From: Cystobasidiomycetes sp. EMM_F5
Taxonomy: Eukaryota
Assembly: GCA_051047955.1 (NCBI GenBank)
Contig: JBPGPT010000036.1
Span: forward strand, 62,001-126,000
Direction: 5' to 3'
Length of the DNA: 64,000 bases
Part shown: piece after piece, positions 6,794-54,537 of the stretch
Layout: the number at the start of each line of letters is the position of its first letter
Numbering within the stretch: the stretch's first letter is position 1
The notes under the pieces: model-generated
What the model saw: only the letters and a program-made list of their open reading frames with translations
Databases searched by the model: none
Told to the model about the DNA's origin: nothing
Program-made: the position numbers and the translations under genes

Positions 6794-9700
6794 CTACTGT
6801 AGCCCCATCTTGAGTAGCGAGCCGGCCAGCTCTAGGTCTGCAAAGCTTTGCGCCAGTGTAGAATTGTCTTCGTGATCATTTGCTGTGTTTGCAGCCGCTC
6901 CGTCTTTACGGGAGTGCAGATACGCAAGAGATGACCGGAAGTGTTGTATGATGGCGTCCGGATTCGACACACCCTGGATCAGCCCTGCCGTGGCGCTGGA
7001 AGACGTGGGATGGACGTCAACAGCATGTATGTTGTCTATGTTTGAGGTGATCAATTCTACCAGACTGTTGATGTGTTTCGGGGTGACAGCCTCTACTTGT
7101 CGCTCAAAGTAGTAAACGTATTGGTCGAGTGCATCGACATACAGCTGTATGGTAGTGAGATCATCAATGCACGATGTCGCGATCCGCAAGGCTTTCTGCA
7201 AACACTCAAGGACTCGTTTGCCATCCTTACACAATGGCTGGGGAATGACCCAAGCAAATGTCAGTCTTCGAAAATCCGCGAGCGTTATAAACAACAAAGA
7301 CGCTCACTTTGCCTGCCTTAGCTGGCCCTCCAGCGGTCTCTACTTGCCACCACATATGGCTCGCTAACATGACGGCAGTTGCCTGATGCCCCTTCTTCAA
7401 GAGCTTAGCGCCATGCAGTGCAGCTTTCGTGATCAAAGTATCGTAATTGTCGGCCGTGTAGACCCGTGACGCTTGCAATGTAGATATGATCAGAGTCACA
7501 GCTTGCAATTGCGCTCTCGATTCTGAAATCGACTCTTCGTAGATCCTGCAAATTAAGCAATTAGTTCATCCACTCACAAATATAAAGGGAGCTCAGGCGT
7601 ACGTGAATGCTTGCACGGCAAATTCGTAGGCTAGTTCCTCAAGTTCCGCCTCGTCAGCGGCTTGAAGAGCTAACAAATACAGCCTGAGGCATATTTCCGA
7701 CGCATCCGATGGCGAGTTATAGAGTGTGGATATCACTGGAGAATGACATCCGTCAATACAAGGAAAACGTGTCAGCATCGAGACGGCATAATCCACCTTG
7801 ATGTATGAACCGGAACAAAGTAGATGCTCGTGCATCAGACTCCATTTCTTTGACGTCCTCCAGCCCGGCAGGCCTTCGCCGGGCCAGCTTTATTGCTGCT
7901 ACGATGAGCGGCGGATATGTCCAGCGAATGCGATCACCACCCTCAGCGAAAGACATGCGAGCAGTTTGTAACAGCTGATGATATTTGTGAATGAGCCGAC
8001 ATTAGCATGCCATATGCAGAAATATGATCCAACTGACCTTGAATTGGATATCGTCATCGTCGTTGCGAAACAAATGCACAAGCCTTGCGACCCAACCCTG
8101 CTCCTCCGCCATTTCTTCGTAATCGTACGGTTGTGCTCCCCTCTGGCTATGATTACGAATCATACCACGACTGCTAGCCAATGCTCCAGGGGGCGGTTGC
8201 TGACCTCTACCCCAATTACTACCATTACTGACTCCATTACTGCCGAGGTGAGTAGGCATGCCGTGACCTGCATCCTTCTGATCTCGCACAAGAGTATGAC
8301 AAAGGTCGAGAATACCCTTGACCTCCTCGGGTGTCGTGATGATAGTTTCTTTCTTCAGCAGAGAAGAAACAATTGCATGGCCGATGCTTCGCCTGGTTGC
8401 GTACGGTTGCATCTGCAAAATGGGGGTATAAGTAGGAAGTTGGAGGAGCAGCAATGGAGTTGGGTAAGCTGTTATTGGTGCGACTAGGAGACCAAGCAGA
8501 TTTTGCACGGTAACCGGGTGATGCAGGTCGGCACTGCATATTTCGCTAATGTTTAGCAACTCTGCATGAACAGTCTAGATTAAGACACACCTGTTTGCGT
8601 ATTCGTCAATCTTTGCTCGCGCGAACGACAAGACGTGGTCGACGTAGTCTATGCGATCAGGATAGCAGGAAAGGGAAAGATGGATGAGGGATACCAAGAG
8701 AGCGGTCACGTCCTGAATGGACAGATCGGGCCTGGCCTGAATATGGATAGAGTAAGACAACGATAAACCCCTTGTACTGCTAACATACCTTGATCAATTC
8801 GACCACTTGATGCCAGAAGACTTCGAATAAGCGGACATCTTGTGGGATGCCGCGGTATTTCTTGACAGCCGGAGCGTCACCGTCCTTCTCTGGCGACTTC
8901 CCTTTGTCTTCTGATTGTTTCGCAGGAGATCCGGCTGAACTGGCTTCTCCAGATGCCGTTCCCGGCGCGTTTTCCTGCTCCCCATTACGACTTTCAGTCG
9001 AAGTAGTGCTAATTTGAGGATCTGAGGCCCCTCCAATCTGCGAGGTTGCTCCCACAGCGCTTGTAGACGGCTCATTCTCTTTCACCGCATCGTTCTCCGC
9101 TTCACGCGCAGCATACGCTGCCAAGCGGTCAATTAATGCGATAACAATCTGCTTGATGTTGACTTTGGGGTGCAATTGTGCGGTAGCTGACAGGAATGGT
9201 CCCAGCGTCCTCAAGTGGAAATCATCGGTGAAGACCTGTACCAATGCACGGCATTCTAATAATCAGCTAGGGGACGCAGGGCACACTAGCTACACGGACA
9301 CGTACCTGAATGACCACCTCCATCAAATACTCCTGAGCTATGACATCCTTACAATTAACGACCTGGTCAAGAACGACTGGTAGAATGATCCTTCGATACA
9401 TGTCCAGATCGACGCCTTCGAGTTGGGACAAGCGGACTAGATTTGTACCGACCAGGATACGAAGCTCTCGCCGTTCAATCTCTCTCTTCTCCCGGTCGCG
9501 CGACAGACCTTGATGTTGCAGCCTGACCCACAACTTGTTCATTTCGATGAAGTTTGTCAGGACGAACCCGATTGAGTCGTTCAAGTTTCCAGACGGGCTG
9601 TAGTGATGTTACTTAGATGATTGTATGACGCATGCGGTGAACACAATTACCCTTGATCATCACCTATTGGCAGATGCTCCCTCGTCATGCCGGAGAGGTA

Positions 9701-10347
9701 GAATCTGAGGAACAATCCTCTTGTTGGATGTTGCACTCCTCTGGCCATGTCTGCTAGGTCGCGCATGATCTATACATACTGTTAGAATTACTTTCGGGTA
9801 TGTCGCGCTGAACAGCCAACCCACCTCTTTACGCGGCGACTCCTCTACCGACATGTAGACTGCTCCGACGGTGATCATGAGGTAGAGACGGGGGACAATG
9901 TTGCCAGCGTACTGGACGAGTTCGTACACGTCGCTCAGGTGGATTGACGTGTTCTTGTGGGCGTCGAAGAGGTACGAAGCGAGATGCCGCAGGGCGTCAA
10001 AGACGGCAATGTCTGCGTTTCCATTGGTCGTTGCATTGGAATAAACCGTCAGCAGTCACCCAGCGCATCCTCGTTGCACTCACACAGCTCGTAGTACTGT
10101 TTCGGGGACAATGACGATGTCCGCAGTTCAGCGAGCAAGGTCGAGGCCGCTTTGAGGCCTTCCATGAGTTGGTCCGCGTCCTTGTAACGAATAGATTAGC
10201 CATACATCAGTCATTAATATCAGCATCAGCGTCAGTATTCGCCGTTCCAATGCAACAACGCCGCCAACGCACAAGGCACTTTCGCATCGTCCCCTGCTGC
10301 AGCTTGACGGTCGCCAGAGCTTCCCCGAGTGCTCTGCCTTCGTCCAT
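6794..10347 (-). CDS. VPS35: Retromer subunit Vps35, multi-exon
   Basis: Starts [15 protein letters not shown]. Contains [50 protein letters not shown], and the C-terminal [14 protein letters not shown]. Confidence 0.97.
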
Positions 10348-10501
10348 GGCGGGCAATATCCTGTTTCAGTGTTTTGATTGTTGGTTGGTTTGGAGGAGAC
10401 CTTTGATTGATTTCAAACGACATTCAGGCTTGTTTCTGCTCCAACTTGTGCAAATCAGCCATGGTTCAGGACTGCGACGACGACGAGGACACTGGCACAC
10501 C

Positions 10502-12367
10502 ATGAACGTGTCGAGCATCCCTGTGAATACCCGCAGCATCCACAGCCAGCAGCCAGTCAAATGGGCAGATATTACAAAAGAACGGCTCGACAACAGCCAT
10601 GTCCCCGCGACGGGAGATATGCTCGAGGACCATCTCGAAGACCTCGTAAAGATTCCCATTGCCCAAGAACTCCAGTCGCGTAGAAATTTGGGTAGAAACT
10701 CGTCGTTTCAGTCGGGACATCATGCAGACGATAATACATCCTCGTACAGCCACGAGACATTCCCTACTGCCGGCGATGAGTCTGTATCCCTACCCGCAAC
10801 GAATCCATTGTCCGAATCAGGCGAAGCATCCACATCACAATCCCAATTAACAACCCTAAATAAGACACCGACTAAAAGTGGCATACCCCGTACCGACAGA
10901 GACCGGAAACGAGCTCAGAGCAGTCCTCTCCATGTCCTGACGACATCTCAGCTTCAGCAACCCACTGCCGAGCTATCTCAGCCGATGAACAGAGACGCGT
11001 CCTCCAGCTCAGGCTCATCCAGTGGTGTATCAGGCGCCAAGCGCGCGCGATTGGGCAAAGGAGCGTCGGGTACTACTTTTACTGCTTCCCAGACACCGGT
11101 CCCAGGCTCTCGGAAGCCCGACAGTCCCGTCGTCCAGATTCAGACGCCTCGCAAGCCGTCGGCAAACTTATCCATTGGCGGGCAGTCTTCTGCTACCAAG
11201 TCGCCTCGGCAGGCTTCGACACCCTTTCGTGGCAAATCCCCAAGTAGCTCGCCATATATTCCCTCTGCTGTCCGCTTACGCGCCAAATCCGCCAGTACTC
11301 CAGCTTCGCCTAACCCAAACGGTTACTATTCCTCACATGCAGACGACGTCAAGCCACCATGGTTGGCAAATCAGGAGGATCTCATGTACAAGAGTGATTT
11401 GCAGGCTATACTTCCCAGTCCAGATTCACTAGCCGGTATTGCCATGTTTGCCCGAAGCAATAGTTCTGCCCATCACGCACTCGGCAGCGGACATCCAGAT
11501 ACCTCTACAGAAGCAGCTGACACTTCTACGCGGTCATGGGATGACGTTATTTTACCCGCTGTTGCGAAACGGATTAGGGAACAGCAGATGCTCGCTTATC
11601 AAGATGCGGTCTTGTCAGGCTCTGCTGCCGCCTCTTCGGCTATGGCAGGCACTTCGTCCACCATGACCAATGGAGCCCTTACAGACGATTCAGATCTGGT
11701 CATTGTGGACTATCATGCCGACGGAACGCCTCGCAAGTTCAAAAGAGTCGGCAAGAAACAGAGGGAGAAGATGATGCAAGAGCAGTGCGAGGAAGGACGA
11801 TCACCGACCACACCTGCAGTCGATAATCTGGGTGTACAAATCGTTGACGAAAATGGTGAATCGCACACCTCGACGAATGCTTCGGAACATGGTCAGACCG
11901 TTCGAAGCAATAGCCCGCCACTGGTCAATGAAAATCATCTCAGCCATCAGGCGGCATCAGACAACCAGGGTATAATCGCTACGGAAACGCACTCCGGCCG
12001 TCATCGCCAAACATCAGAAGGCACCAGTCACACGTCCACAAATGCTGACATTCGCACACAAAGCCCTAAGGCAGCTCAAAGCACAAGCACGCTCAGTACT
12101 CAGCCTGGAGGTCGACCATCAATCGGCACCGGAACAGGCCGCTCTGAGATATGGCAGGAGCCAGGCCTGCACAGTCCGAACGTTGCACGAGCGAACGGCT
12201 TTGCGAGCATGCAGCGGCAGCCAAGCAAAGGTCATTTGCTGCCTCGTATCTCCGAGGTCAAGAATGAAGAGAAGCCTCCAGACTCAAAGGCAGTAGAATC
12301 CGCTGCCAAACGGAAGGTCGTGCCAGATGGCGAACACAAGGGAGGCTGCAGATGCATTATTATGTAA
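10502..12367 (+). CDS. Ser/Pro-rich protein with C-terminal CAAX box; TeaR/Mod5-like cell-end marker candidate
   Basis: Intronless ORF from MNVSSIP, ending GGCRCIIM*. Internal PPWLA..MYKSD and ILPAVAKRIREQQ motifs. Confidence 0.7.
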   Translation: MNVSSIPVNTRSIHSQQPVKWADITKERLDNSHVPATGDMLEDHLEDLVKIPIAQELQSRRNLGRNSSFQSGHHADDNTSSYSHETFPTAGDESVSLPATNPLSESGEASTSQSQLTTLNKTPTKSGIPRTDRDRKRAQSSPLHVLTTSQLQQPTAELSQPMNRDASSSSGSSSGVSGAKRARLGKGASGTTFTASQTPVPGSRKPDSPVVQIQTPRKPSANLSIGGQSSATKSPRQASTPFRGKSPSSSPYIPSAVRLRAKSASTPASPNPNGYYSSHADDVKPPWLANQEDLMYKSDLQAILPSPDSLAGIAMFARSNSSAHHALGSGHPDTSTEAADTSTRSWDDVILPAVAKRIREQQMLAYQDAVLSGSAAASSAMAGTSSTMTNGALTDDSDLVIVDYHADGTPRKFKRVGKKQREKMMQEQCEEGRSPTTPAVDNLGVQIVDENGESHTSTNASEHGQTVRSNSPPLVNENHLSHQAASDNQGIIATETHSGRHRQTSEGTSHTSTNADIRTQSPKAAQSTSTLSTQPGGRPSIGTGTGRSEIWQEPGLHSPNVARANGFASMQRQPSKGHLLPRISEVKNEEKPPDSKAVESAAKRKVVPDGEHKGGCRCIIM

Positions 12368-12719
12368 CTCGCCGTTGCATCTGGAGTAAGTATTATTACG
12401 GGAGATGAGCAGATTCATACTGCCTGCTCGACCTCCCTGCAACGATCGACGAGAGCAGAAGTTCAGGCCAATCGTGGAGATCCGGTAGGGTCCTCACCGA
12501 CAACAACCTGCGCGCGGTGGGCATTTGAGGCGCATGGGGGATCAGTCAGTTCATGCAGTTAATTACGTTGTTCACGACGACCGCCATCGTACAAGGCATC
12601 CTTTGCTTTCATTCTGTATCATAACGATCTATACGGAGAACTAGGTAGAGTTTCGCAAAGCGAAGCAATAATTATGTGCATCTGTACCATATGGATTCGT
12701 TACACAACAAAGCAGTGAT

Positions 12720-15110
12720 CTACATCTTCCAGTCAAGACCCAAGTCGTTTTCAGCGGCCGGTGTGTCTTTCTTTGCGGCCTTGCCTTTCCTCTTGTCGAT
12801 TTCTTTAGTCAGATCTGCGACGGCTGCTCGCTCCGTGCTGTTCATAGCTTGCGGAACTGAAGGGCCAGCTTGAGTCTTGTTTCCTTGATGTGTCGGCATT
12901 TCTGCTCCACCAGGCTGAGCTTGCGATGTCGGTACAGGCTTTCGCCGGAACGCCTGCGCAGCTCTGTTCACCATTGGCTGCGTCGACGGACCAGGTAGTA
13001 CGGTAGGTAGACTCTGAGCTTCTTGTGCAATGGACCCGAGCTGTGTCGTCGGTTCGATGTCGGCTCGCTGACGTCTGGATGGCTCATCGGCACTAGCGGA
13101 TCTCGCAGGTAGCTTTGGCGGGACAAAGGCTGTCTTTGATTTCGAGGGCACTGGTCGCTCTCGCTTGATGCCCAACTTTTCCGCAACTCGACCAGTACCG
13201 GACGGTCCGGACGACTTGCTTGCGCTCGGAGCGGTCTGGCTGCGCTGTGGTATCATCCGTGACAGGCGGAACGCAACTTTGCCTTTACCTTTTCCTTTGG
13301 TTGCTGATGAGCCGGACGCATTGGCCGACACCCCAAGTTGGCCTTTCTTGGTGGCTAGGTTCGCAGCAGCTACCTTCTTTACTGCTTTGCGGAAGCGGAA
13401 TTCAGCCTTCTTGCCGCTTCCTTCTTTTGATGCTTTGTTCGCTACTCTGTTCACTCCGTCGTTTCCAGAAGAATCTGAGTCGCTGGAGGTGTTTGTGTCT
13501 GTAGAATTGCCTTTGTTTCCACTGTCCTTGCTGTTCTGACGACTCATATTCTGTCTTTGCACCACAGAGTCTTGACCATCTAAGGCGAACGTTTGCTTCT
13601 CGGCATCAGTGAAGAAGTCTGATACGGACGCATCATCCTGTGCGGCACCACTTTGAGCAGCTTCCAAAGCAGTCTGACGCCGCTGCCGACGAGCCTCCTT
13701 CTTGGCTTCCTTACTGGTATGCGATTTCTTTTCCTTCTTGGCCGCACGTTTAGCTTCATCTTTCGCTTGTTTCATAAGCTGCTTGGTAAGTTTCTGGAAG
13801 CCATTTTCTCGCTTCTTTCCGGTCCGCATCTCGTAGAGAGCGTCTTCGAGAGCCATGTCCGAAATGACCATCTGACAAGCTGAACTATGAGATTTGTCGA
13901 GTAAGATACGACGCTGCTTGATTGCGTTGCGCTCCTTGATGGGGAAATGTTTATCGCGAAAAGCACGCAGAGCCTTTTCGTCGAGGGTGGCCTTGTCTGG
14001 AGGTTGATCGATACCATCTACCTTGCCGCCAAGTAGACCAGCCTTTTCAGCCTCGTCCAGCTCAGATTCTCCACTCTCCGACGCTATCGCAGCCTCTGCG
14101 CCGGCTTGGAACTTTTTAAGCATGGCTTCCAGCCGGCCAAGCTTTGACAGGACAGACTTTTCTGCCGCACTTTGGTTGCGTGTGATTTCAATTGTCCTCT
14201 TGCCTTTCGGTCGGACTCCTCGCCCCCGCTGAGCTTGCGTAACGAAAGCAAGGAAGAGAATGACGAGTTCCATAATAGCAATAATGGCATCGAAGAGTAC
14301 TGTAAGGAGTACGTGATGTGGTTCATAGTTGGTTTTTGTGATGATGTTGCCTCTGTACCAGAAGAAGAGCCCGAGAGCGAGTCCCAAGAAGCCAATGTCA
14401 GACAAAACAGCTAGGAGAGCGATGAAGACTGTGAATGTGGGAGGACTGCATTGACAGAACGCCTATCGGAAGGGTAAATCAGCGCGAGTCTCCTCAGGTC
14501 ATGTCTTTGTCCGCACAAATGCTGCAGCGAACGTGAATACAAATGCGGCTGTGCGGCTTTTAGATGCGTTCTGCCCGCATCTTTGGTAACTTGCTTACCT
14601 AGGCCGACTAACGGGTAGGTTGCGGTGACCAAAGTTGGCGGCATGACAGCAGTCCAAGCGTCTCCGCCTTGCATGACAGTTTTGTCTGTACACATAACAG
14701 AGGTCAGCTTGATTCTGCCTAGCATGGCTTTAAACACAGGCGCACCTATGGATAAGCCCAGGCCAAAAGGGCCGCAAGATACGGCGTTGGCGCTCTTCCA
14801 GCATATACGGAACATTCCGATGTATACGGAGTCGGGGCCACCGCCACCTTTTGAATTTGCCTGTATAATTGCCCAAGGGGGCCCGAGTTCCGCATTGGCA
14901 TAGCTGGCGAGATTTATTGATAATTGAACGAGTGTGAGTAGTGCAGCTGGGTAACATGACAACGCACTCATCAGCTTCATATCCGACTCTGTAGACTCCT
15001 CGGCAGTAGCCCGAGGACAGGTCCAGCTCACCTGCTACCAGAGCAAAAGCTAGAGTGAGCCGGCCACAGTGCAGAGGCTTGCTCTTCTGTCCAGCTTCTA
15101 TATCGGCCAT
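12720..15110 (-). CDS. Membrane protein with SUR7/PalI/claudin-like N-terminal region and long basic, low-complexity C-terminal tail
   Basis: Several hydrophobic helices and a loop motif YIGMFRICW..SC. The last exon is a 561-codon Lys/Ala/Ser-rich ORF. Confidence 0.6.
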
Positions 15111-26938: not shown

Positions 26939-28807
26939 ATGGACTACGCTCACTATGCACGCTCGTTCGTCAACGGAGCTTTTGTGGAGAAGACGGCAAA
27001 GACGTTCAGCATCAGCAATCCAGCTACTGGCGAGAAGGTTGTCGATGTACAAGAAGCTGGTGCAGAAGGTCCGTGAAGGGATGGCCGGATCTGCCGCTGA
27101 CAATCTGGTAGTTGTTGCTCGAGCTGAGACATTCCGCCCACAGAGGTAGACAGTGCCGTAGCTGCCGCAGAGAAAGCTTTTCCTGCATGGGCAAGTCGTC
27201 TCACGATTCTAGCTGCACTTCTGGTCGCTGAACTAGCCGTTTTCGACAGTCCGAGCGACCCCCGCACGAACGAGCCGCACACCTACGCAAGCTCGCCAGC
27301 TTGATGGGTAGGTAGCATACTCACGCCGTTCCCCCAACAGCTGCTGATATGCCTGCATGATGCTAGAGGCCAATACCAAGAGACTTGCCGAGCTCGATTC
27401 GGTATGCATGGGAGTCCCTTTGGCAATGCACGGGAGAGCTGTGGGTATAGCCGCAAGCCACCTCACCCACTCTGCCAGTCTAGCCGAGACCTATTTGGGT
27501 GGTACCGCCTCCACAAGCCGTCCGGGCTTCGTCAACATGTCGTTGAAGGTCCCTTACGGCGTCGTCGCAGGTAATAGGCCGCCTGTCCGGGTCACGAAAC
27601 GTCTAAGCTAACGCAAGAATGCAGGCATTACCCCTTGGAATGTTCCCTGCATCGTGAGCAGAACTAAGATTGCCTTATAGGTCGCTAAAAATTCAGCTAT
27701 TCACTTGTACAGATGTTTACAGCAAAAGCTGGACCTGCTCTAGCTGCTGGTAACGTCATCATCATCAAGACATCCGAAAAGAGCCCTCTGAGCGGTTCAC
27801 TTATTGCCGAGCTGGCTGCCGAAGCAGGTTTCCCTCCCGGCGTTCTGCAGGTCATCACTGGTGGCGGCTTGGCCGGCAAATTGATTGCAGAGCATATGAG
27901 GATTAGAGCGATATCGTGAGTCGTTGAAAAGGGAGATTGTTGCAGTGTATACTGACGAGATGCCATGACCCATACAGCTTCACTGGCTCCACTCGAACTG
28001 GCAGAGCGATTCAGGAGGCTAGTGCTCGCTCAAACTTGAAGACTGTTCAGCTCGAGCTCGGCGGTAAGAGCCCTGCTGTGGTCTGCGAAGACGCCGATAT
28101 AGAGCAAGCCGTCAAAGCTTTGTCATTCTCATTGTGGAACAACAGCGGCCAGATCTGCATGGCTTCGACGCGCGTATATGTCCATGAGAAGATTCGTGAA
28201 GAATTCGTCTCGCAGTACAAGTCTGCTCTGCGAAACATTACAGGCGGCGATCCATCCAGTCCAAAGACCTTCATGGGACCGCTTGCTGACAGTATTCAGC
28301 ACAAAGCCGTGTCAAATTACATCGAGACTGGCCGTAAAGAAGGCAAAGTCCTGTTGGAAAGCAAAGCCAGCGAGAAGGGCTACTATGTCAACCCGATGAT
28401 ATTCTCGGACGTGGCGGACGATGCTACCATCAACAGAGAGGAAATCTTCGGCCCCGTCGTGGTAGTCCATACGTTTGCGGACGACGAAGAAGCCATCCGT
28501 CGGTCGAACAACTCTGAATACGGATTGTTCGCTTCAGTCTTTACGAAGAATGTGGATCGTGCGCTGAAGTTTGCCAAGCGTCTGGAAGCAGGGGTAAGTT
28601 TGGGCGCCTATGGCTCTTGAACAAAGTCAGCTGAACCGGGTTATCTCGCGCACGCAGAATGTTGCCGTCAACTGTAGTTCACCTATGGGAGACTCAAACT
28701 TCGAGTTTGGAGGGGTAAAACAGTCTGGTGTGGGACGCGAAGGTGGAGTGAAAGCACTGGAGCCGTGGCTCGAGACCAAGTCCGTGTACATTGCCGTCAG
28801 CAATTAG
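26939..28807 (+). CDS. NAD-dependent aldehyde dehydrogenase (ALDH1/2-like)
   Basis: SFVNGAFV..NPATGE, GITPWN, KTSEKSP, SFTGSTRTG, LELGGKSP, the catalytic GQICMAS, EEIFGPV and FGGVKQSGVGREGG. Confidence 0.95.
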
Positions 28808-33328: not shown

Positions 33329-33583
33329 GACCCCGATAATTTGTTGGCGACGTCGGGTCTTTCTTTCTCCTGCCGAAATATCAGAGCTCGCAGGTTTGGA
33401 CGATGTCCGGGCTCGACTATCGCGTAGCCTGCTATTGAATGAGCGTGTCCGAGGCAATGGCGCAGGCTGGCAGTCAGGTTTATGGATTGGTCAAGGTCAA
33501 GCAGGAAGGAGGTGGGCAACGGAGTCGAAATATACCAAGCTGTCGAAGACTTCACTGCAAGATTGACTGACACCGACTAACGT

Positions 33584-35338
33584 CTACACTGCAAATGCCG
33601 GAAACTTTCCATTGTGGCCGTGAAATGCAATGGCTCTTAGGTCGGTAAACTGCAAAACCCACAAGCCCGTCAGAAATGACCTTTCTATCGCGGCCTGGAT
33701 CGAGAGGACCCACCGAGTCGACATTGAATCTGTTGTACCCCGAAGCCCCGCCTAAGCCCGCATTGCCAAAGGTTGGCTCAACGTGAATCGTTGCTCCGTT
33801 GACCTGAACAGATCCTGCCTTGATTTGCGGAGCAAACTTCATTGCTTCATGCAGATTGGACGTCCAAAGACTGGCAATGAGGGAGTATTCAGAATCGTTG
33901 GCTAGTCGGATAGCCTCTTCCATGGTGTCGAATGGGGTGAGCGCTATGACTGGGCCAAAAGTCTCGCGAGGCCAGATAGACATCGATGTGGTCACATCGC
34001 CAAGTACCATAGGCTGAATGACCGTTTTGTAGTCGCCTTCCGGGGCTCCAGATGCAGCTCCGGTCAGAACTTTCGCTCCATCCTTGACTGCATCTGCAAT
34101 CTGCTTGGCGACGTTGGATGCTGCCTGTTGGGTGAACAGAGGTCCCTGGAAAGAGATGTGAGCACATATTGATGGGAGACTACAATGACACTCACGAGAG
34201 CAGCCGTGGCGCTTGGATCTCCAGCCTGAAGTTTTGAGACTCGGTCCGCAACAAGCTTGGAGAACCGCTCGTAGACCTCTCTTTGTACAAGGACACGTTC
34301 AGCTGACATACAAATCTGTAGAAACACTGTTAGCAGAGTGTCACGCCTGCTTCCAGGTGAAAGCTTACCTGCCCGCTGTGCATCATGGCAGAAAATACGC
34401 ATCCCCAAGCTGCAGCCTCGAGATTGTCTTCTGCCTGCTTCGAAATGATGTACGGAGCTTTCCCGCCAAGCTCCAGAACGCATTGCTTGAGATTGCGCCC
34501 ACATTCTGATGCAATGATTCGTCCCACTACATCTGATCCGGTGAAAGTGACGCGAGCCACTTCTCGCCTTCCGATAATATGCTTTGCGAGCTCTGGCGCG
34601 TCTTTTCGACTGAACGTCAGGAAGGCTATCGCTTCCTTTGGTAATCCTGCTTCGAGTAGAAGATCGACAATGAGACGTTGGCTTGCAGGTGAATATTCGG
34701 AGGCTTTCAGAATGACTGTATTGCCGCAGATTAAGGGGATAGCAATGCCGCGTAAGGCGAGATTTGGCGGACTGTTCCAGGGGGCCATCGAGAAAACGAC
34801 CTGTCACGAGTGTCAGCCTTGCCGACGCATTTCAGGAAGGTTGCGGTACTCACTCCGGCTGCCCTTCTCTGAACAATGTACATATCCACATCCGGCTTTT
34901 CGCTGCGATGTACTTCGCCTTTGATTGCGGAAGCTTGACTTGCTGCCTCACGTAAAAGATTGGCGCTGGCAATAATGTTCACATGTATCCATCCAGGAGC
35001 TGCCGCCGTTTCCGACGACATGCAGTTTCGTATCCGATCCGCGTACCGCTTCTCGGTCACAAGGTCTGCAGCTCTGAGGAATATTGCTCGCTTTGCGCTC
35101 GCAGGGACTTTCTCCCATTGTGGTTGAAATGCCGCCAGTCCGTCGACGGCATCGTTACAGTCCTGCAAGCTGGCAGAGGGGCACGTCCAAACGGTCTTGC
35201 CAGTCAATCTGGGTGGATCATCAGCACGTAGTACAGCTTTTATCGTTTTCGAGCTGCTCACGGGTTGACCACGTCAAAACGGCTGCTTCCTTCGAGTCTA
35301 TCGGCACCGGCCACGAACAAGGACGGGGTCGCGGACAT
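33584..35338 (-). CDS. Aromatic aldehyde dehydrogenase, vanillin/salicylaldehyde dehydrogenase type
   Basis: APWNSPPNLALRGIAIPLICGNTVILKASEYSP, FTGSDVVGRIIA, LELGGKAP, GQ|ICMSAER, ETFGPV, ANDSEY and VNGATIH. These match the VDH/SaliADH subfamily pattern. Confidence 0.88.
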
Positions 35339-35446
35339 TGCAGCAGTGGAGTCAAAGACTGATGTGAAGTCTGCGTTGAGGTTCTACTTCTCGCGTTACT
35401 CACTCCTACAAAAGCCAGTTCCACTGATCTCCTGCTTCGAGATCTT

Positions 35447-35512
35447 CGGCATCAGATATCCGAAAACTGGAAATGGGCCGGCTGAGTGTGCCTGGCGGCC
35501 TTTGGGAGTCCG
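35447..35512. promoter_or_regulatory. CGG-N10-CCG (35447-62) and CGG-N11-CCG (35496-512) putative Zn2Cys6 sites in the VDH/LSD divergent promoter
   Basis: CGGCATCAGATATCCG and (GG)CGGCCTTTGGGAGTCCG(CC). Confidence 0.5.
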
Positions 35513-35723
35513 CCAATCCGGCAAACTCGTGTACGCTCACTGGCAGTGCTTAGATTGAGCAAATGACCTGCTCTCCCCTAGAAAATAGCTAACGTATCCT
35601 CTGCACTTCAACCGAAAGCTCTTCTGTCTCATTCCGCTGAGATCCAGCTGACCCGGTTCAACGGGCCGCAAGCCGCCGATACTGACTTTCAGTCCCCTGC
35701 AATACTGCCTTGATTCCATCAAG

Positions 35724-37984
35724 ATGTCCAAGTTCTCCTCCCCCTTCGTAGATGTGCATCCCACCCTCCGAGAGCCAGCTTTCCTGGGTTTCGACGCTCC
35801 TGCCAGATTCGAAGCAGAGGTGTGGGACTGCTTTGTGGGTGACAGTCAACAAGTCTCGAATTGCTTTACACTGAAAGACACTGATGCTTATGCCAGATCG
35901 AGGGACATGTCCCAAAACAAATCGACGGTACATTCTATAGAGTCGCTCCCGACATGCAGGTCATTGCAAAGTACCCCGGCGAGTGAGTCAGGCGATACGC
36001 TCGAATGTATTACGGGGGCTGACGCTACCTCAGAGTAAACTTCAACGGTGGGTTCGGTTCTGAGGGCCTACCCCGCCGAAGGCTAACATTTCTCTCAAGG
36101 GGATGGCATGATCTCGGCTTTCAGGTTTCGCGATGGTCATGTAGATTTCAAAAGTAAGTTTGATGCCCCATGCACTTGTTATGCTATCGCATGCGACTGA
36201 AACTCCTTATCGTCGTTAGACAAATTTGTCCGGACGGAGAAGCTGGTCAGGGAACGAGCAGCACGAAGAGCTTTGATTGGCAAGTACCGCAATGGCTACA
36301 CGGACGACCCTCTCATAGCGGGAGCTGTGCGCACCACCTCAAATACCAACATTGTGCATATGTTTGGCAAATTGGTCAGTTGATAAGAGCAATTTCTGGG
36401 GGGAGTTCAGTTGTTGACAATCGCTTAATAATCAGCTCGCGCTCAAGGAGGACGCGCTCCCGTATGAATTAGACCCACACAGTCTCCGGACCATTGGAAT
36501 CACCAACATCAATGGCGAATACACGGCACCTACCTTCACAGCGGTACGTCTGTACCTTCGTTACTAGAGATTAGAAGAAGCCACTTGTTCATGTGTATCA
36601 CGGATCTGTTCACAGCACCCCAAGCAAGATCCAAAGAACGGCGAGTGGGTCATCTATGGTTACGAAATCGAGGGCGACGGCTCGCGAGGTGTTCGCTACT
36701 CGCTCTTCTCGGAGGATGGCAAGAAGCTAGAGGAGTGTGATTTTGAAGCGCCGTATTGTGGTGTCATGCACGATATCGGCATCACAGACAACTACATCAT
36801 TTTCCAGATATATCCTCTCGAATGTGATGTGGAAAGGGTAAAGAGGGGTGGTAATCATTGGGTTTATAACGAGAAGTTGCCGATGTACCTATGTCGTAAG
36901 TTATGCCATATCTTGGGCATGAAGAGAGGCGGCTGAAGACTGCGCCTGACAGTTTTGCCCCGTCGAGGAGCAAAGTCGAGCGACGCCAAGTGGTTCCACT
37001 GGGACCCTGACCACTTTGAGGGGCACTTCAGCAACGCCTTCGAGAAGGATGGCAAGGTGTATGCCGATTTTCCCGTGATTAAAGGCAATGTGATGAGCTG
37101 GTTTCCCGACAAGAATGGCTATGCCCCCCCCAGGCCAGCGCTCAAGACATTCTTTGCCAGATTTGAGCTAGATCCAAATGCGACAGACCTAAGGATGCCG
37201 AGCCCGACCAAGTTGTGTGATATTTCGGGAGAGTTCTCGAGGATAGACGACCGCTTCGTAGGCCAAGATTACACGTGGACCTACATTGCGGCCATCAACA
37301 TGCAGTTCCCGTACGATCGCGAAAAGAGCGGAGGTCGTCCATTCCCTGGCTTTAATTGCATTGGTCGGATGAATAACAAAACCGGCCATGTAGATTATTG
37401 GTCGCCTGGTCCGTGCGCTTCTGTGGGAGAACCTTCCTTTATTCCGCGATCAGCAGATGCGCCTGAAGGGGATGGATTCGTCATATGCCGTGCGTGACAG
37501 TCTGTGATTCCGCCGCCAAAGGCATATCGACTGAAGCCAACTCCACAGTAATCAACCGTCACGACACTCAATTGTCTGATCTGGTTGTATTGGATGCAGT
37601 GACTTGGGAGCAAGTCGGGATGGTAAAGCTGCCGTTGCGAGTAAGGCCAGGTTTGCACGGCAACTTCGTTCTGAGAAACAGTATGCTGGATCCCGATGCG
37701 CCATTGGCAGATTACGAGTGGGTGCCGGCCAAGGTAAGTCATCTATGCACTATAAGCTTGCACCGGAGACTGACGCAGTATGCGACTGAAACAAGTTTGA
37801 TGGCCATGTTGACAATGCCATTACTGGTGCCAAGATCCCTTACCGTGGAGGCAGGACACCAATGTCGGGCTTCTGCAACGACGGAGGCATCAACGGGCAT
37901 GCAGCACCTCCTAGGGAAGGCGCGAATGGACACGTCAACGGGAGTGAAAAGGCGGTGAATGAGGCTTTGAAGCATGATATCTGA
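35724..37984 (+). CDS. Lignostilbene alpha,beta-dioxygenase / stilbene-cleaving carotenoid oxygenase family (LsdA/CAO-1-like)
   Basis: GFDAPARFEAE, DGTFYRVAPD, FNGDG, GKYRNGYTDDP and LALKED. All four Fe-binding His are present (TFTAHPK, MHD, EGHFSNAFE, GLHGNF), plus EFSRIDDR and GEPSFIPRS..EGDG. The last acceptor is ambiguous (alternative stop at 37958). Confidence 0.9.
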
Positions 37985-38659
37985 GGTATACGGATAGCTT
38001 CTTGAAGATGGTTGTACGGCAGCTTAGCTCTTCACCAATTCGCGCAATGACTAGCAATCAGCTCAATCCGACTGGAAAGAGGTGATTAGCGACAATGACC
38101 CGCTTATATGAGCTGTATTAGCGGTTCACAGCATCCTAACTCTTTCGTTGAATGAACCCTCAGGCTCCGGACGGTCATTCTCGCATTCCCGCTTCTCGTT
38201 GCGACATCGTATGTCCTGTATCAGCGAATGTACGAAAGCAAGGAGCAGCGCAAGGTTCGAGGGCCAGGCGACAACCCGTTCCGCGAGACTATGGGTAACC
38301 GTGGTTGAGGTTCGAAAGAAAGCCGAGTCTGGCTCATATGGACGCCTCAAATATCGCAAGTCTAGAGAGCAGGCCTGCAATGAAGCCATGACCATCATGC
38401 AATTCCCACTACGATGACAAGGACGTTAAGGTCGATATCAAGGGCTCGCAATGGAGGTTTCAGGAGTCGGGGACTCCGAGGCGTTGTCAGAGATCCGCCG
38501 TGGCCTTCCGATACTACGACTACAACAACTCCACGTCTTAGACGGGCATGCTTTGCAACCAATAGCATTGATGGCTTTGCCGACACAACCTGCCAGAAGG
38601 CATATTTCCTAAATATTCACGATGTTGGGTAATTTGCCCCCCTGTCATATACATACCAT

Positions 38660-39733
38660 CTAATGACCGTTTGTCTGCTTCTTTTGAAGCGCGCTGATGA
38701 CTTCCAGCACCGAAACTGCCCGCATGTCCTGAGTCGACGGTCTTTGCTCGCCAGTGACGGGGTGAGCATAGTGGAATGGCACAGTGTGCGCGTCAGCTGA
38801 TAGAACACGCGTGTCAGCCAATTGCGATTCGTGCACAACGCCGCTGCATAGAGAGCCTCACGCCACAGAAATTTCTCCTCCTCGGATTGTAGCTCATCGG
38901 GGCCGGCTGGATCCTGTGGGTACAGAGTTGCAGGGAAGGGCACGTAGTTGCGAGGAACATTCGACCATCCCTCGGAGTAATCGCCGTGCCAGATAGGGTG
39001 GTAGTCTAGAACCTTGATCTTCCAAGGCTCGTTGACCGAATTTCTCGCAAACTCATTCTCGTAGATTCTTTAACGGCCAAAGTCAGATTAACTACACGAA
39101 CAAGCATCATGCTCCTGCTCACCCTCCTTCCCACCACTGCCCTGTCGTAGTCGCGTCTATTTAGCCTGCTGCAACTGTCAGTAAGCAAACACACTCACTA
39201 GGCACTGTTGGCGCATTGGCTGGATCGAAAGGATGGTCGCGGTGTCGTCCGGCTTGCATCAAACTGCGGGCCCTCATTTTCGCCGACAGACGATCCGGCG
39301 CGACGTGAATGATGTCCTGAAGTTGCGGATGATCCAGGAGGAAGCTGTACAAGGGGCATCAGCATTGCTCACAGAGCGAGGTAGCGCCTCAGACTGACCC
39401 GTGAACAGGCCCATTGCGGCCAGCAGTGAACCGTGACTGGAATCTGTCTACATAGAGTCGCTTGACGCCTGCCTTGGTCTTCCACTTGGCGCCATGGAAA
39501 ATGACCATACCGTCGTCCGTGAAGAGATCTACCACCTCGTTGTAGTGGCACTTGTCGATGTAGAAGCCATAAGCGTGTTGCAGGTTGCGAATCTCTGCCG
39601 TATCTGTGTGATTGAGTCGCTCAGCCTGGATTTGTCAATCAAAGTAGAAAGTACACGAACCCTCCAGGACGCCAATGCGATGTGCTTGGTCTTGGATGAG
39701 CTTCTTGAGCTCGGCAATCTCTGATGAAGACAT
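38660..39733 (-). CDS. SnoaL/NTF2-fold protein, LdpA (diarylpropane gamma-formaldehyde lyase)-like; 6 exons, ~260 aa
   Basis: Manual splice gives MSSSEIAELKKLIQDQAHRIGVLE|DTAEIRNLQHAYGFYIDKCHYNEVVDLFTDDG..AGVKRLY..GRNGPVHG|FLLDHPQLQDIIHVAPDRLSAKMRARSLMQAGRH..R|QWWEGG|IYENEF..WKIKVLDY..WHGDYSEGW..YPQDPAGPD..LW|PDAHTVPFHYAHPVTG. All five introns are GT-AG. Confidence 0.8.
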
Positions 39734-39867
39734 GCCTCTTTCTCACGGCAAACTTGTGTTGAGTTGTGTGAGGTCGTATGGAAGCTTGTGAGCGAAAGAA
39801 ATTATCGCGAGGTGAACAAACGAAAGCAGGATACATGGCGTATTTTCGTAGCGGTACAGGTGCATGT

Positions 39868-40048
39868 CGGTCTTGGATATCCGCCCGGCTTCGGCAGGCT
39901 GGGGGAATGCCCGCTTTTGTGCGAATCCGTATTGTAAGCTCATATCCGAGAGCGGGTCCGCAGGTGCATACTTTTAGCGCGTGCAGTGACAGCACTCCAC
40001 TCCTCCGCTCCTCCACATCCGAGTCTTCAAGCGGACGTTCAAAGTCCG
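39868..40048. promoter_or_regulatory. CGG-N10-CCG (39868-83) and CGG-N11-CCG (40032-48) putative Zn2Cys6 sites in the LdpA-like/ADH divergent promoter
   Basis: CGGTCTTGGATATCCG and CGGACGTTCAAAGTCCG. Confidence 0.5.
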
Positions 40049-40278
40049 ACTGGGGCGCAATCCTGGGGCCGCAATGTCCAGTCACGTGCGTACTTTGCTC
40101 GGAACCGCCAGCATGAGTAGACCTAGACATGCTTCAAGATGAGTGCACGTCTGGTGGAGACCACTAGCCCATCTAGACGCTCTCGTGATGAACGGTTCTG
40201 CATCAGGTGAGCATGAACTGGGTGCGAAGCTTGCGCACACTGGAAGGCTAATGGAGCGGAGTCGGGACAGATGTCAGC

Positions 40279-41490
40279 ATGAAGACCACTGTAATGGCAC
40301 TGGAAGAAGCCAAAGGGCACTTCGCTGAGCACCAAGTCTACCTAAACCCACTTGAGGACGAAGAGGTCATCGTAGATATTGTCGCTTCGGGCATCTGCCA
40401 TTCAGACTTCCACATTCTAGACGGCCAGACGCCTGCGCAATTTCCTGTGACGTTGGGGCACGAAGGCGCTGGCGTTGTCCGCAAGGTGGGATCGCGTGTC
40501 AAGCTAGTCAAGGTGCGAAGTACAGTCTGAACATGCAAAGTGGAGTGACTCATCAGAATTTCTCAGCCTGGTGACAAGGTAGTGTTGTGCTACACTCACT
40601 GCCAGACATGCCGCCACTGTCTTGAGGGCGAACACAGCTTGTGTGATGATTGGTTCAAGTGGAATCTGCTTGGAAACCGAACCAACGGCAAGAAGACATG
40701 GTCGGAGCATGAGGGAGCAGGAAAACAGTATGGTAACTTCATCAGTCAAGGGAGCTTCTCTCGTGCGTTGATCATACATGAGACTGGAGCGGTCAAAGTC
40801 AGCGATGATGCCGATCTCGAAACCCTCGCGGGTGGTGAGCAGATTGACCACGACTCTAAAATGCCAGCACTGATTTGCGCCTCATCAGGCATTGGCTGTG
40901 GTCTCTTGACAGGAGCTGGAACTGTCTTTAATGGCTTCCGAGGACACCGGGTGGGATCCTCAATCGCCGTATTTGGGGTCGGAGCAGTCGGAGCAGGTGC
41001 AATCATGGCTGCCAGGAACGGCGCATACAGCAAGATCATCGCTGTGGATTTGCACGAGAACCGACTCGAAGTTGCGAAGAAGTTGGGCGCAACGCACATT
41101 ATCAGTGGTCGTTCCAGCGACGTCGCCGACCAGATCCAGAATCTCGGAGGCGTCGACTACGCCGTCGAGGCTACGGGTGTTCCAGCTGTCTTGCAGACTG
41201 CCTATGACAGTCTACGAAGTGGTGGCAAAGCAGCTGTTGTAGGCATCGCACCTTTCGACAAGACCCTGGCGTTGCCGATATCAAGACACATGAGCACTGG
41301 CAAATCCATTCAGGGTTACGCCTTAGGAGCATCGTTTCCTCGAACCTTCATACCCTTCCTCAGTGATCTATACAAGCAAGGGCGATTTCCGTTCGACATG
41401 CTCACCAAAAAGTATCCGATGGCCGACATTGACAAGGCTATCACGGCCATGAAGGACGGCAGCGTGATCAAACCGATTCTGGTGTGGTAA
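40279..41490 (+). CDS. Zn-dependent medium-chain alcohol dehydrogenase, benzyl/aryl-alcohol dehydrogenase type
   Basis: GICHSD, LGHEGAGVV, structural Zn site CQTCRHCLEGEHSLC, GCGLLTGAGTV, FGVGAVG and LYKQGRFPFD. Confidence 0.9.
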
Positions 41491-52125: not shown

Positions 52126-54537
52126 TCAAATCCGCTGCGTTGGCAGCATTCCGTGTTCAACCGTACTCTCTTCGGCTTTCTCGAAGGCAGGCGTGCTAAT
52201 AGGCCCCATTGCTGCCTCTTGGTCTCCGATATACTTGTTTGCAGAGTCGATGTAGGGCCGATCGACCTTTGGTGTCACTAGATTGTGCGATTATCGTGGC
52301 GTCAGCCATTTATAAATTTCAAAATTCCGGTTGCTGTCAGCTACTCACTCTTATCTTTGACGCTCTCCAGACATGCGCAGGTCACTGCAGCAAGGGCTAT
52401 TGGGCCCAGTATGCTATACCAAGCGTATGAGAAGGCATAAGCTTGAGATTCGTAGTACGCCGGAATCACGGCTTGTGCAACCTGAGGAGTCAAGCCGGGA
52501 ACGTTGACAATTAACGCTGGGCTGATCTCAATGAGTCCAAATAAAATTGGGAGCGACGAGGGCGGAAGCCCGGCCTGAAGTGCGGCGGGTCCAACTAATT
52601 CGGGTAACTTCGACGCTAGCTTGCTCGTCCGAATCGTCGAAACAACAGCCGTGCCCACAGTGCCTCCAAAGGCTCTTCCACTAGCTACCAGCGCAGTTAC
52701 TGTTGCAATCAATTCAGGAGGGGCCGATAATTGAACGACCTTGAGAGGATTTCATCAGTAAACAACCACCAGCGTACTGATACTTGTAGTTACCATGTTC
52801 AAGAGTATCAAGGGTGCACAGAAACCGACTCCGGCTACCGCTAGAGCTCCCATGAGGAGTGCGTCGCCACCTGTGCCAGGTTTGCACTGCGAAAGCATGG
52901 CGGCGGCAACGAGGAACAGCGTGAATCCGATAACAAGTGGAGTCCTGGGATCCTTGTACCTCGCGACGTACCAAGAAATTGGGAATGCGCACAAAAATGT
53001 GGCGGCGGTAAAGATGAAAGATCGGGCACCGATTTTAATCGGATCTGATGCATATCCTAGGCCAAGAATTTCTTGCGGGACGTATGCTGCGACGTTCTGG
53101 AGCAAAGAGTCACGTCAGCCTGCAGCCTGCTGAAAAAGGCTATTACTGACTGTGAAGTAGACCCATCCCTCTGACGATGCATAGTCAGTCAGTACTTGAT
53201 GGATCTCAAATTCAGTCTTAGCCCTTTCTTACCCACGGCCAGAGCTATCGAAATGCGATTGTCAGAAATTGGTCGTCGCGCGCTGCTGGGGAGCTCACCG
53301 AAAGTAGCAACTGCAAAGTTGCGACCGAGGCCAAAGATTCGATGGTCGACAATACCGTCTGACCTGCCTTTCCACTCCCATATGCCGAAGGCGACCAAGG
53401 AAGCCAAGCCAATCAACAGCGGAGCCAGAACGGTAGCGCTGCTCCATGCATACTTCTCACCACCCCAATTGAGGGCCAACAGGGTCAGGGCGAGGGCTAT
53501 CACAATGAGCAGCGATCCAACGACGTCAAGGTCGTGCAACAGCTGGCTCATCGTCCGCTTGCGATAATCAGGTGGAGTCGGTGGGCTGAACGCAAAGGAC
53601 TCAGCCTCACCAAGCCTGCTGCTGACTCAAACGCGATGTCCACTCACTTATAGACAAAGACGATACCAAGAAACGTGAGGCCATAGGACGCTGCGAGGAG
53701 CCAATAGACGATTCTCCAACCATTAACAGCGTCCCCTTGCACCATCCCACCGGTCCCAAGCGATCCAATGACCGTGGCAGCATTGGCCGCGTACAGAACG
53801 GTTGCTTGTGCATAAGAGCGTTTGCTATGCGGAAGCACCTCTGATGGAATCGATCTGCGAATAAAACTGCTAAGACTCCACTCTGTTTCGAAAGGCTCGC
53901 ATTCGGCTTACGAGGTCACGCCGACACATGAGATTGCAATCCCAATGAGGACTTGACCAGCAATGACCATCTGCATACTCGTCGCCTTGCCACCGACAAT
54001 CGCGCCAGCTACGCCAAAGAGACAGCACACGGCGATAATGTGCTTCTTCTTGCCGGTCAAATCGGATAGACGAGCCAAGACGGGACTGCAAATGCCAATA
54101 GTATAATTATTATTATGAAACCCGCAAGAGATGGATAGCCGTACGCCAATGCAGCTTGACACAGGGTAGGGCCGGAAATGAGCCATACAGCATCTTGGGG
54201 ATCACCCAGAGATTGTATTATGAAGGCAATGACGCCTGCAGCTCCGGTGATGGACAGAAGAGAGCTGAAAGTGTGAAGTGAAGCGCATAGGATAGCGACC
54301 CAGCCTAGGCGATGGATGGAGAGAAAGATCAGAGAGATCAGTAATATCAGCTGTTGTGCGATGATGCACGGACGCACTTTTCCAAGACACCTCGGGTTCA
54401 GCATATTTGGACCCGCTTGTTCTGAGAGACATTGCGTGAGGGTGCGTTCACGCCAAATTTGCCTACGCGTTCAGAACTTACAAGATTCTCTGAGGATTAT
54501 GTCCACCTTCGTCGTATTCGACTGGTTGTGAAGCCAT
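52126..54537 (-). CDS. MFS transporter, 14-TM Tri12/DHA2-like
   Basis: ARLSDLTGKK, SEVLP, GWRIVYW, LDVVGSLL..LNWGGEKYAWSSATVLAPL, GRAFGGTVGTAV and YAFSYAW. Confidence 0.88.

Follow-up and report, generated by a model that had tools for sequence, protein, structure and literature searches.

A candidate gene cluster for the cleavage of two-ring phenylpropanoids through a stilbene in the basidiomycete yeast Cystobasidiomycetes sp. EMM_F5

The genome of Cystobasidiomycetes sp. EMM_F5, a basidiomycete of the Pucciniomycotina, contains a compact cluster of aromatic enzyme genes, which we describe here from a 64-kb window (the whole stretch of DNA analysed, taken from contig JBPGPT010000036.1). The cluster spans positions 33584-41490 of the window and consists of four complete, intron-rich genes arranged as two head-to-head pairs within 7.9 kb: an aldehyde dehydrogenase (ALDH) with a stilbene-cleaving oxygenase (SCO) of the lignostilbene dioxygenase (LSD) type, and an NTF2/SnoaL_4 protein with a zinc-dependent alcohol dehydrogenase (ADH) (Table 1). 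On balance, and with no great confidence, we favour the reading that these genes form a fungal catabolic cluster that would convert a C-C-linked two-ring phenylpropanoid into a stilbene and the stilbene into single-ring products, most likely starting from a beta-5 phenylcoumaran such as dehydrodiconiferyl alcohol. The substrate would then be a lignin fragment or a plant neolignan.

The model for such a route is bacterial. In Novosphingobium aromaticivorans the lyase PcfL (Saro_0796), which is 44% identical to the diarylpropane lyase LdpA, acts on the beta-5 dimer acid DC-C, in which it opens the phenylcoumaran ring with release of a stilbene and formaldehyde; the stilbene is cleaved by LsdD (Saro_0802, also called NOV1), and the products are processed by FerD (Saro_0797) and LigW (Saro_0799) (mBio 2024, PMC11323797). 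The beta-5 route was rebuilt in vitro from an NAD-dependent ADH, PcfL, LsdD, the ALDH FerD and LigW (PMC11323797), and four of these five types of enzyme are encoded next to one another in the yeast cluster. Moreover, both characterised members of the bacterial lyase family make a stilbene that is cut by a neighbouring LSD (PMC9942872, PMC11323797).

By analogy, the zinc-dependent ADH and the ALDH would oxidise an allylic alcohol side chain to the aldehyde and then to the acid. The cofactor-free NTF2 lyase would next expel the gamma-carbon as formaldehyde via a quinone methide, leaving a 4-hydroxystilbene; catalysis would rely on a His-Asp dyad, a Glu acid and a Tyr oxyanion hole. The iron oxygenase would then cut the stilbene double bond to give vanillin and a second aromatic aldehyde, and the ALDH would turn these aldehydes into acids. 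The order of the steps, like the joint expression of the four genes, is a prediction of this scheme.

Fungi are the main degraders of lignin. A 2026 review of dimer catabolism says of specific fungal counterparts to the bacterial pathways that they "have not yet been reported" (PMC12997858), and our search for LdpA or diarylpropane lyase and for PcfL or phenylcoumaran returned bacterial papers only and no fungal paper within the literature covered, although others may exist. The locus is a compact and directly testable candidate made up of four small yeast genes. If the activity were confirmed, fungi would be able to assimilate lignin or neolignan dimers intracellularly, and the enzymes would be eukaryote-ready tools for lignin valorisation in yeast hosts.

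Family membership and catalytic residues of the four enzymes

The spliced product of the NTF2 gene is identical at every residue to the database protein P0001, [quoted passage not shown]. A PDB search with P0001 returned three distinct sequences, all of them LdpA (8ABT/8ABU/8ABV/8ABW), with E values of 6.6e-54 to 4.7e-52 over residues 7-233. LdpA (LsdE), the gamma-formaldehyde lyase of erythro-diguaiacylpropanediol (DGPD) in N. aromaticivorans and Sphingobium SYK-6, belongs to the same family and is its only solved relative; these four entries are the diarylpropane lyase structures (PNAS 2023, PMC9942872). The mechanism described for LdpA involves the acid-base dyad His97-Asp40 (motif I), the acid catalyst Glu143, an oxyanion hole of Tyr35 and Tyr147, and Tyr74; activity is lost when His97 is substituted or with Asp40Ala, and is about fivefold lower with Asp40Asn (PMC9942872). 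The same paper defines a motif II, Glu143-Tyr165-Gln170, which it calls exclusive to LdpA and in which Tyr165 is the stacking residue, and places His183 in contact with the phenol of the beta-ring.

In an alignment numbered on the LdpA orthologue, the yeast protein keeps Tyr35, Asp40, Tyr74, His97, Glu143, Tyr147 and Tyr165 of NaLdpA, and has His in place of Gln at position 170. Six of the seven NaLdpA residues mutated in PMC9942872 are kept, the seventh, His183, being Asn. Asp40 and His97 are present in all 15 aligned family sequences, and the core Y-D-H-E-Y-Y is intact in 93 of 94 bacterial members. By these comparisons the yeast protein is a member of the LdpA/PcfL lyase family with an intact catalytic core. 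Other hallmarks of this family are a C-terminal arm on the SnoaL_4/NTF2 fold, a homotrimeric state, and stilbene formation with loss of formaldehyde that requires no cofactor.

Novosphingobium subterraneum offers a reference for the two branches of this family, as it encodes two members that are 45% identical to each other. One of them (L086) is identical to NaLdpA across the 70 residues shown by the PDB search. The locus of the other (L019/L082) has the order SDR, SDR (short-chain dehydrogenase/reductase), MFS, SnoaL_4, ALDH, unknown, Amidohydro_2, MFS, RPE65, which matches Saro_0793-0802, and the RPE65 protein of this locus is near-identical to NOV1 5J53 (1015 bits); by its gene order and its near-NOV1 LSD, we take it to be the PcfL locus. 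With this PcfL orthologue the yeast protein shares 56% identity, as against 44% with the LdpA orthologue.

Two positions follow the same division. Among 94 bacterial members, 80 carry His170 and lack His183, and 61 of these 80 have an ALDH gene within 2.5 kb; 13 carry Gln170, with His183 also present in 12 of the 13, all of the second type of lower identity, and one is a broken copy. The eight fungal or fungal-like sequences tabulated, including the window protein, all have His170 and all lack His183. Thus the LdpA-subtype signature, Gln170 with His183, is absent from the yeast protein, which has His170 and Asn183.

The careful maximum-likelihood (ML) tree was built on 45 rows and 251 columns, after thinning at 72% identity, which took the bacterial rows from 98 to 13, and without three long-branch rows (rep_P0293, rep_P0267 and rep_P0301). 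The window protein, two Phenoliferia proteins and three unnamed sequences form one clade (support 100/99), and this six-sequence basidiomycete clade has the PcfL clade as its sister group (95/94). LdpA is placed elsewhere (100/100), and the sampled ascomycete homologues, from Cadophora, Leptodontidium and Apiospora, form a separate clade (100/99). The first-pass annotation had described the protein as LdpA-like, which holds for the family but not for the nearest paralogue, which by identity is PcfL. Identity, signature residues and tree together suggest that the yeast protein is more probably of the PcfL type, without settling the point. Many longer proteins of 640-1019 aa (P0010-P0014, P0165, P0168-P0170 and similar ones) match the yeast lyase in three stretches with 31-37% identity; these multi-domain relatives of the lyase family include one named from Modestobacter.

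The oxygenase falls on the side of the stilbene-cleaving enzymes. Its 186-aa exon has 13 PDB matches at E<=0.001, all titled dioxygenase, carotenoid oxygenase or lignostilbene dioxygenase; they include the stilbene cleavers 6XM6 (LSD4), 6OJR (LsdA) and 5J53 (NOV1), 5V2D (the LSD of P. brassicacearum) and 5U8X (CAO1, or CAO-1, of Neurospora). The best NCBIfam matches are lignostilbene dioxygenase models, scoring 136.6 bits where the apo-carotenoid dioxygenase model scores 57. In LSD4 the Fe(II) site is formed by His167, His218, His284 and His476 with second-shell Glu135, Glu353 and Glu418, and the 4-hydroxyphenyl pocket by Phe59, Tyr101 and Lys134 (JBC 2021). When aligned to the NOV1 orthologue, the yeast enzyme keeps all of these residues, and also Asn120 and Thr121; its iron-site, second-shell and pocket residues match those of the solved stilbene oxygenases LSD4, LsdA and NOV1. 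Position 283 is a Gly, a small residue, and not Ser, Ala or Phe; in LSD4, specificity for both substrates drops about tenfold when this residue is Phe (JBC 2021).

A quick tree with 39 rows joins the yeast oxygenase to the LSDs of Atractiella rhizophila and Phenoliferia psychrophenolica with a support of 100 in the Shimodaira-Hasegawa-like approximate likelihood ratio test (SH-aLRT), and this clade nests in a group with all named fungal sequences (94), apart from the LsdD/NOV1 clade. The enzyme also has a Gly/Asn-rich C-terminal tail of about 60 residues that is absent from the bacterial enzymes. By its residues and nearest relatives the enzyme is on the stilbene-cleaving and not the carotenoid-cleaving side, in line with its initial naming as a lignostilbene dioxygenase; grouping with carotenoid-cleaving clades was not seen, in a tree that contained no carotenoid-cleaving outgroup.

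The two dehydrogenases were assigned by their nearest relatives. For the ALDH, compared through single exons and not as a whole protein, the best PDB matches of a 157-aa exon are the salicylaldehyde dehydrogenases NahF 4JZ6 (E 1.3e-35) and 6QHN and the vanillin dehydrogenase 9IHB (E 9.2e-33), and the gene model contains both catalytic motifs, with Cys in GQICMS and Glu in LELGGK. With the ALDH exons, all NCBIfam models stayed below their cutoffs. The enzyme thus appears to be an aromatic aldehyde dehydrogenase of the vanillin/salicylaldehyde type, as had been proposed when the gene was called vanillin-type. The best PDB matches of the ADH are 5TNX (E 1e-53) and the benzyl alcohol dehydrogenase 1F8F (E 1.2e-49), and the model holds the zinc-ligand motifs GICHSD, GHEGAG, C-x2-C-x2-C-x7-C and GCG, plus GxGxxG; these features place it among the zinc-dependent aryl-alcohol (benzyl alcohol) dehydrogenases, in agreement with the aryl-alcohol dehydrogenase first annotated. 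A role as formaldehyde dehydrogenase for the by-product of the lyase was also considered and ranked lower, as the class III/formaldehyde ADHs match at E about 1e-31, about 20 orders of magnitude worse than the aryl-alcohol dehydrogenases.

Linkage of the lyase and oxygenase genes in bacteria and other fungi

A prokaryotic genome scan with the yeast lyase yielded 281 relatives, of which the best 80 loci, with 51-59% identity, were used; the choice was by similarity to an alignment led by fungal sequences and is thus biased towards the PcfL type. In 58 of these 80 loci an LSD gene lies within 10 kb of the NTF2 gene, and in 68 an ALDH gene does. A metagenome scan with P0001 found no close fungal relative with flanks among the best 80 loci of 330 relatives; these loci match at 50-59% identity in a single uninterrupted stretch and were read as bacterial-type.

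In nine contigs of metagenome-assembled genomes from Steroidobacteraceae or other gammaproteobacteria (L001-L008 and L025), an NTF2 gene of the PcfL type (His170) and one of the LdpA type (Gln170/His183) stand in tandem, at about 10000-15000 in most of them. Where the contig is long enough, the tandem is directly followed by an LSD gene (eight of nine loci) and an ALDH gene (six of nine). The arrangement looks like a compact operon that possibly feeds both dimer types into one oxygenase. In a contig of Neobacillus niacini (L061, Bacillota), the genes for an ALDH, an LSD and a homologue of the NTF2 lyase (51% identity to the yeast protein) stand in a row at about 7000-10700; this host falls outside the Proteobacteria, where the pathway is known.

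A fungal cluster of this kind is not new as such, because Gluck-Thaler, Vijayakumar and Slot (bioRxiv 2018) searched 550 fungal genomes and described 80 full "model 1" sco clusters, with all clusters found in Pezizomycotina. A "model 1" cluster comprises sco, an ALDH gene, a SnoaL gene (PF13577) of "unknown function" and the key gene dhbd (PF04909) (Gluck-Thaler et al. 2018). Three of these four model genes (sco, ALDH and SnoaL-like) are adjacent in the yeast too, while a zinc-dependent ADH gene takes the place of dhbd. Moreover, the yeast NTF2 gene falls outside the clade of the sampled ascomycete homologues, which are possible members of "model 1" clusters. The absence of an earlier description, as initially supposed, therefore holds for basidiomycetes and for the lyase reading, but not for the sco-ALDH-SnoaL association itself, which is already known in ascomycetes; what is new is the Pucciniomycotina host, the zinc-dependent ADH without a decarboxylase, and the reading of the SnoaL protein as a lyase of the LdpA/PcfL type.

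The locus joins two literatures that we did not find connected, that on the ascomycete sco-SnoaL clusters (2018) and that on the bacterial LdpA and PcfL lyases (2023-2024). We put forward, as a tentative proposal that may well prove wrong, that it represents the first eukaryotic intracellular pathway for C-C-linked lignin or neolignan dimers (phenylcoumaran or diarylpropane, via a cofactor-free lyase), in which a lyase gene acquired from bacteria of the sphingomonad type would have been joined to a native fungal stilbene oxygenase by convergent assembly in fungi, and which would explain the SnoaL gene of "model 1". If so, sco, dhbd, ALDH and SnoaL would correspond, in this order, to LsdD, LigW, FerD and PcfL, and the 80 ascomycete clusters would be lignin-dimer or neolignan modules, not only phytoalexin modules.

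The proposed beta-5 route and its alternatives

Of the known systems, the PcfL-FerD-LigW-LsdD locus of N. aromaticivorans (Saro_0796-0802) is the closest counterpart. It has a lyase of the same family with the same signature (His170, no His183), and an ALDH and a stilbene-cleaving oxygenase adjoin the lyase in both. The yeast genes, in contrast, are eukaryotic, with two to nine introns each, and form two divergent pairs instead of the bacterial order; the cluster has no LigW-type decarboxylase, MFS or SDR gene; its oxygenase belongs to the fungal SCO group and not to the LsdD/NOV1 clade; and it includes a zinc-dependent ADH, which is rare in bacteria. The cluster matches the beta-5 (PcfL) branch better than the beta-1 (LdpA) branch, also because the ADH and the ALDH sit beside the lyase, and makes a fungal stilbene route credible as judged from gene content and homology.

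Several results weigh against a beta-5 pathway. A similar zinc-dependent ADH occurs in only 5 of the 80 bacterial loci. The cluster ALDH is 31-38% identical to the FerD orthologue, about as similar as a second ALDH of the window (about 27.7-28.6 kb), and by this measure is not a FerD orthologue. A decarboxylase of the LigW/dhbd type (PF04909) was not found among 127 open reading frames (ORFs) of at least 110 aa in the flanks of the 64-kb window, the 17 ORFs of the cluster span being excluded, nor did tblastn with the ORFs of L019, including the LigW-type one, give a decarboxylase match in the window, though a copy split into short exons could escape it; the absence matters, since in bacteria the step on 5-carboxyferulate requires this decarboxylase. 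Phenoliferia psychrophenolica carries its closest LSD (P0017, on a 54-kb contig) and its NTF2 homologue (P0050, on a 1.67-Mb contig) on different contigs. The two divergent promoters share ten 8-mers, against a shuffle mean of 6.5 and maximum of 21, which is within the range of the shuffles. Positions 81 and 183 of the lyase are variable in the fungal sequences, and Phenoliferia and P0048 have Phe in place of Tyr74; the substrate specificity of this family is not readable from sequence. Finally, when the basidiomycete clade was joined to LdpA, the approximately unbiased (AU) test did not reject the grouping (delta lnL 20.7, p 0.087), and because of this the preference for PcfL over LdpA relies on identity, the two signature positions and branch support.

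The version first proposed for this locus was that the NTF2 protein is a functional LdpA, so that erythro-DGPD, a beta-1 dimer, would yield lignostilbene, then two vanillins and finally vanillate. The shared family and the fully kept catalytic core agree with it, as does the AU result. The bacterial LSDs tested all cleave lignostilbene (JBC 2021), and the nine bacterial loci in which PcfL- and LdpA-type genes precede one LSD in tandem suggest that the two chemistries are interchangeable neighbours. We nevertheless consider this version unlikely: the lower identity to the LdpA orthologue and the best tree speak for PcfL, Gln170 of motif II and His183 are replaced by His and Asn, two states that separate cleanly in the 94 bacterial members, and the additional enzymes of the bacterial beta-1 route are SDRs (LdpB/C, LigD/L) and not a zinc-dependent ADH (PMC12997858). 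It is also improbable, in our view, that the cluster serves to degrade stilbene phytoalexins, with the oxygenase cutting ready-made plant stilbenes (resveratrol, pterostilbene, pinosylvin), the ALDH and ADH handling the aldehydes, and the NTF2 protein having some other role and forming no stilbene. Four fungal SCOs assayed on resveratrol-type stilbenes and isoeugenol had similar cleavage specificities, and the sco clusters were interpreted as modules of plant defence (Gluck-Thaler 2018); the oxygenase described here belongs with fungal SCOs and not with bacterial LsdD, and an ADH with an ALDH would suit the interconversion of hydroxybenzaldehydes. However, a role in phytoalexin breakdown leaves unexplained why a protein with every essential catalytic residue of LdpA adjoins LSD genes in bacteria, in ascomycetes and in this basidiomycete, when both characterised bacterial relatives supply a stilbene to the LSD next to them.

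Chance or remnant adjacency, with each enzyme acting in the general detoxification of aromatic aldehydes and alcohols, would agree with the separate contigs in Phenoliferia and with the lack, in the 64-kb window, of a cluster-specific transcription factor and of significant shared promoter words. It seems to us quite unlikely, as the four enzymes map onto consecutive steps of one known pathway within 7.9 kb, in two head-to-head pairs between unrelated flanks, and as the linkage of NTF2, LSD and ALDH genes recurs in three distant lineages.

Gene models, promoters and surroundings

Exons were anchored on homologues, in-frame GT-AG junctions were chosen, and Pfam was run on single exons. The outer stop codons of the cluster lie exactly at 33584 and 41490. 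Pfam found Aldedh in three minus-strand pieces at 33555-35273 (E 3e-36, 1e-38 and 1.2e-11), RPE65 in three plus-strand pieces at 36568-37955 (E 1.2e-21, 4.6e-30 and 6.9e-8), SnoaL_4 at 39392-39634 on the minus strand (E 1e-10), and ADH_N with ADH_zinc_N at 40252-41487 on the plus strand. The families, strands and boundaries of the four genes in two divergent pairs over about 8 kb, as given in the first-pass annotation, are thus confirmed by Pfam and the gene models, and so is their description as intron-containing fungal genes, with two to nine GT-AG introns each.

The nine introns of the oxygenase and the five of the NTF2 gene measure 51-72 nt, and the remaining chosen introns 50-64 nt. In intron 2 of the ADH gene an alternative start at 40832 would give a protein one residue shorter. 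The micro-exon of the oxygenase (36034-36047, 14 nt), with introns of 51 and 52 nt on either side, completes the conserved FNGDGM motif; such an exon is easily overlooked by automatic gene callers, which may be why the protein search gave no EMM_F5 oxygenase.

Table 1. Features of the cluster and of its flanks (positions in the window)
Feature	Position	Strand	Details
Aromatic-type NAD(P)+ ALDH gene	33584..35338	-	493 aa, 6 exons; GT-AG model without internal stop
ALDH exons	35338-35262, 35208-34854, 34800-34369, 34315-34196, 34145-33714, 33649-33584 (including stop)	-	
Divergent intergenic region, ALDH/oxygenase	35339..35723	.	385 bp; one copy of CGGCAAACTCGTGT at 35519-35532
Stilbene-cleaving oxygenase gene (LSD/SCO, RPE65 family)	35724..37984	+	572 aa, 10 exons
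Oxygenase exons 1-5	35724-35834, 35897-35982, 36034-36047 (micro-exon), 36100-36153, 36220-36374	+	
Oxygenase exons 6-10	36436-36543, 36616-36895, 36953-37489, 37549-37733, 37796-37984	+	
NTF2/SnoaL_4 protein gene, LdpA/PcfL gamma-formaldehyde lyase family	38660..39733	-	261 aa, 6 exons
NTF2 gene exons	39733-39661, 39603-39399, 39344-39199, 39141-39123, 39067-38862, 38796-38660	-	
Divergent intergenic region, NTF2/ADH	39734..40278	.	545 bp; one copy of CGGCAAACTTGTGT at 39746-39759
Zinc-dependent medium-chain aryl-alcohol dehydrogenase gene	40279..41490	+	367 aa, 3 exons
ADH exons	40279-40512, 40567-40834, 40889-41490	+	
ERGIC/ERV domain	31.8-33.5 kb		Pfam, flank ORF
Second ALDH gene, unrelated	about 27600-28800	+	Pfam Aldedh E 8.6e-76, one exon; 5 kb from cluster
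Weak lipase-3 match	42.5-43.2 kb		Pfam
Cytochrome P450 gene	47097-48429	+	Pfam; about 6 kb past cluster
MFS (TRI12-like) transporter gene	about 53200-53600	-	Pfam
Further flank domains, ERGIC/ERV side			MT-A70, ARMT1, Pex14, L21e, Vps35
Further flank domain, lipase-3/P450 side			DEAD helicase

The co-regulation that had been proposed for the four genes is a hypothesis, and no convincing shared motif was found in the promoters. The two divergent intergenic regions share no word of at least 10 nt, and words of 8-12 nt are no more common between them than in shuffles. No uninterrupted Zn2Cys6 motif was found in any frame of the 64-kb window, and no cluster-specific regulator was seen there. One 14-nt word, CGGCAAACTYGTGT, which includes one Y position, has just two exact matches in the window, one per divergent promoter (Table 1); a third site with two mismatches lies at 25759, and 4 of 100 shuffles reached three matches when up to two mismatches were allowed. 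As the word was derived from the two promoters themselves, its count is post hoc.

With respect to origin, the basidiomycete lyases sit next to sphingomonad PcfL in the best tree, nested among bacterial sequences. Fungi may have acquired the lyase gene from bacteria long ago and assembled the cluster afterwards. This possibility is given no more weight than that because the backbone of the tree is a polytomy, a single fungal clade of basidiomycete and ascomycete lyases is not rejected by the AU test (p 0.35), the guanine-plus-cytosine (GC) content is unremarkable and all four genes have introns. Indeed, GC is even across the window, at about 0.48-0.56, with 0.51-0.54 in the cluster, the same as in its flanks, and the window as a whole reads as fungal, its reading frames being interrupted by short GT-AG introns. 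The oxygenase falls among the fungal SCOs, which makes it unlikely that bacteria passed on the cluster as a unit.

Among the 127 flanking ORFs of at least 110 aa that were run against Pfam, the domains matched are unrelated to those of the cluster, and the four genes thus make up a bounded island between unrelated, mostly housekeeping genes. The ORFs at 29.2-31.7 kb gave no Pfam match, even at E<=1. Unrelated genes also stand between the second ALDH gene and the cluster. The P450 and MFS genes lie 6-12 kb downstream; they may have no link to the cluster or may be accessory genes loosely tied to it. At the far end of the window, exons with GAF, HisKA, HATPase_c and Response_reg domains at about 1900-6000 on the plus strand suggest one or two hybrid histidine kinase genes.

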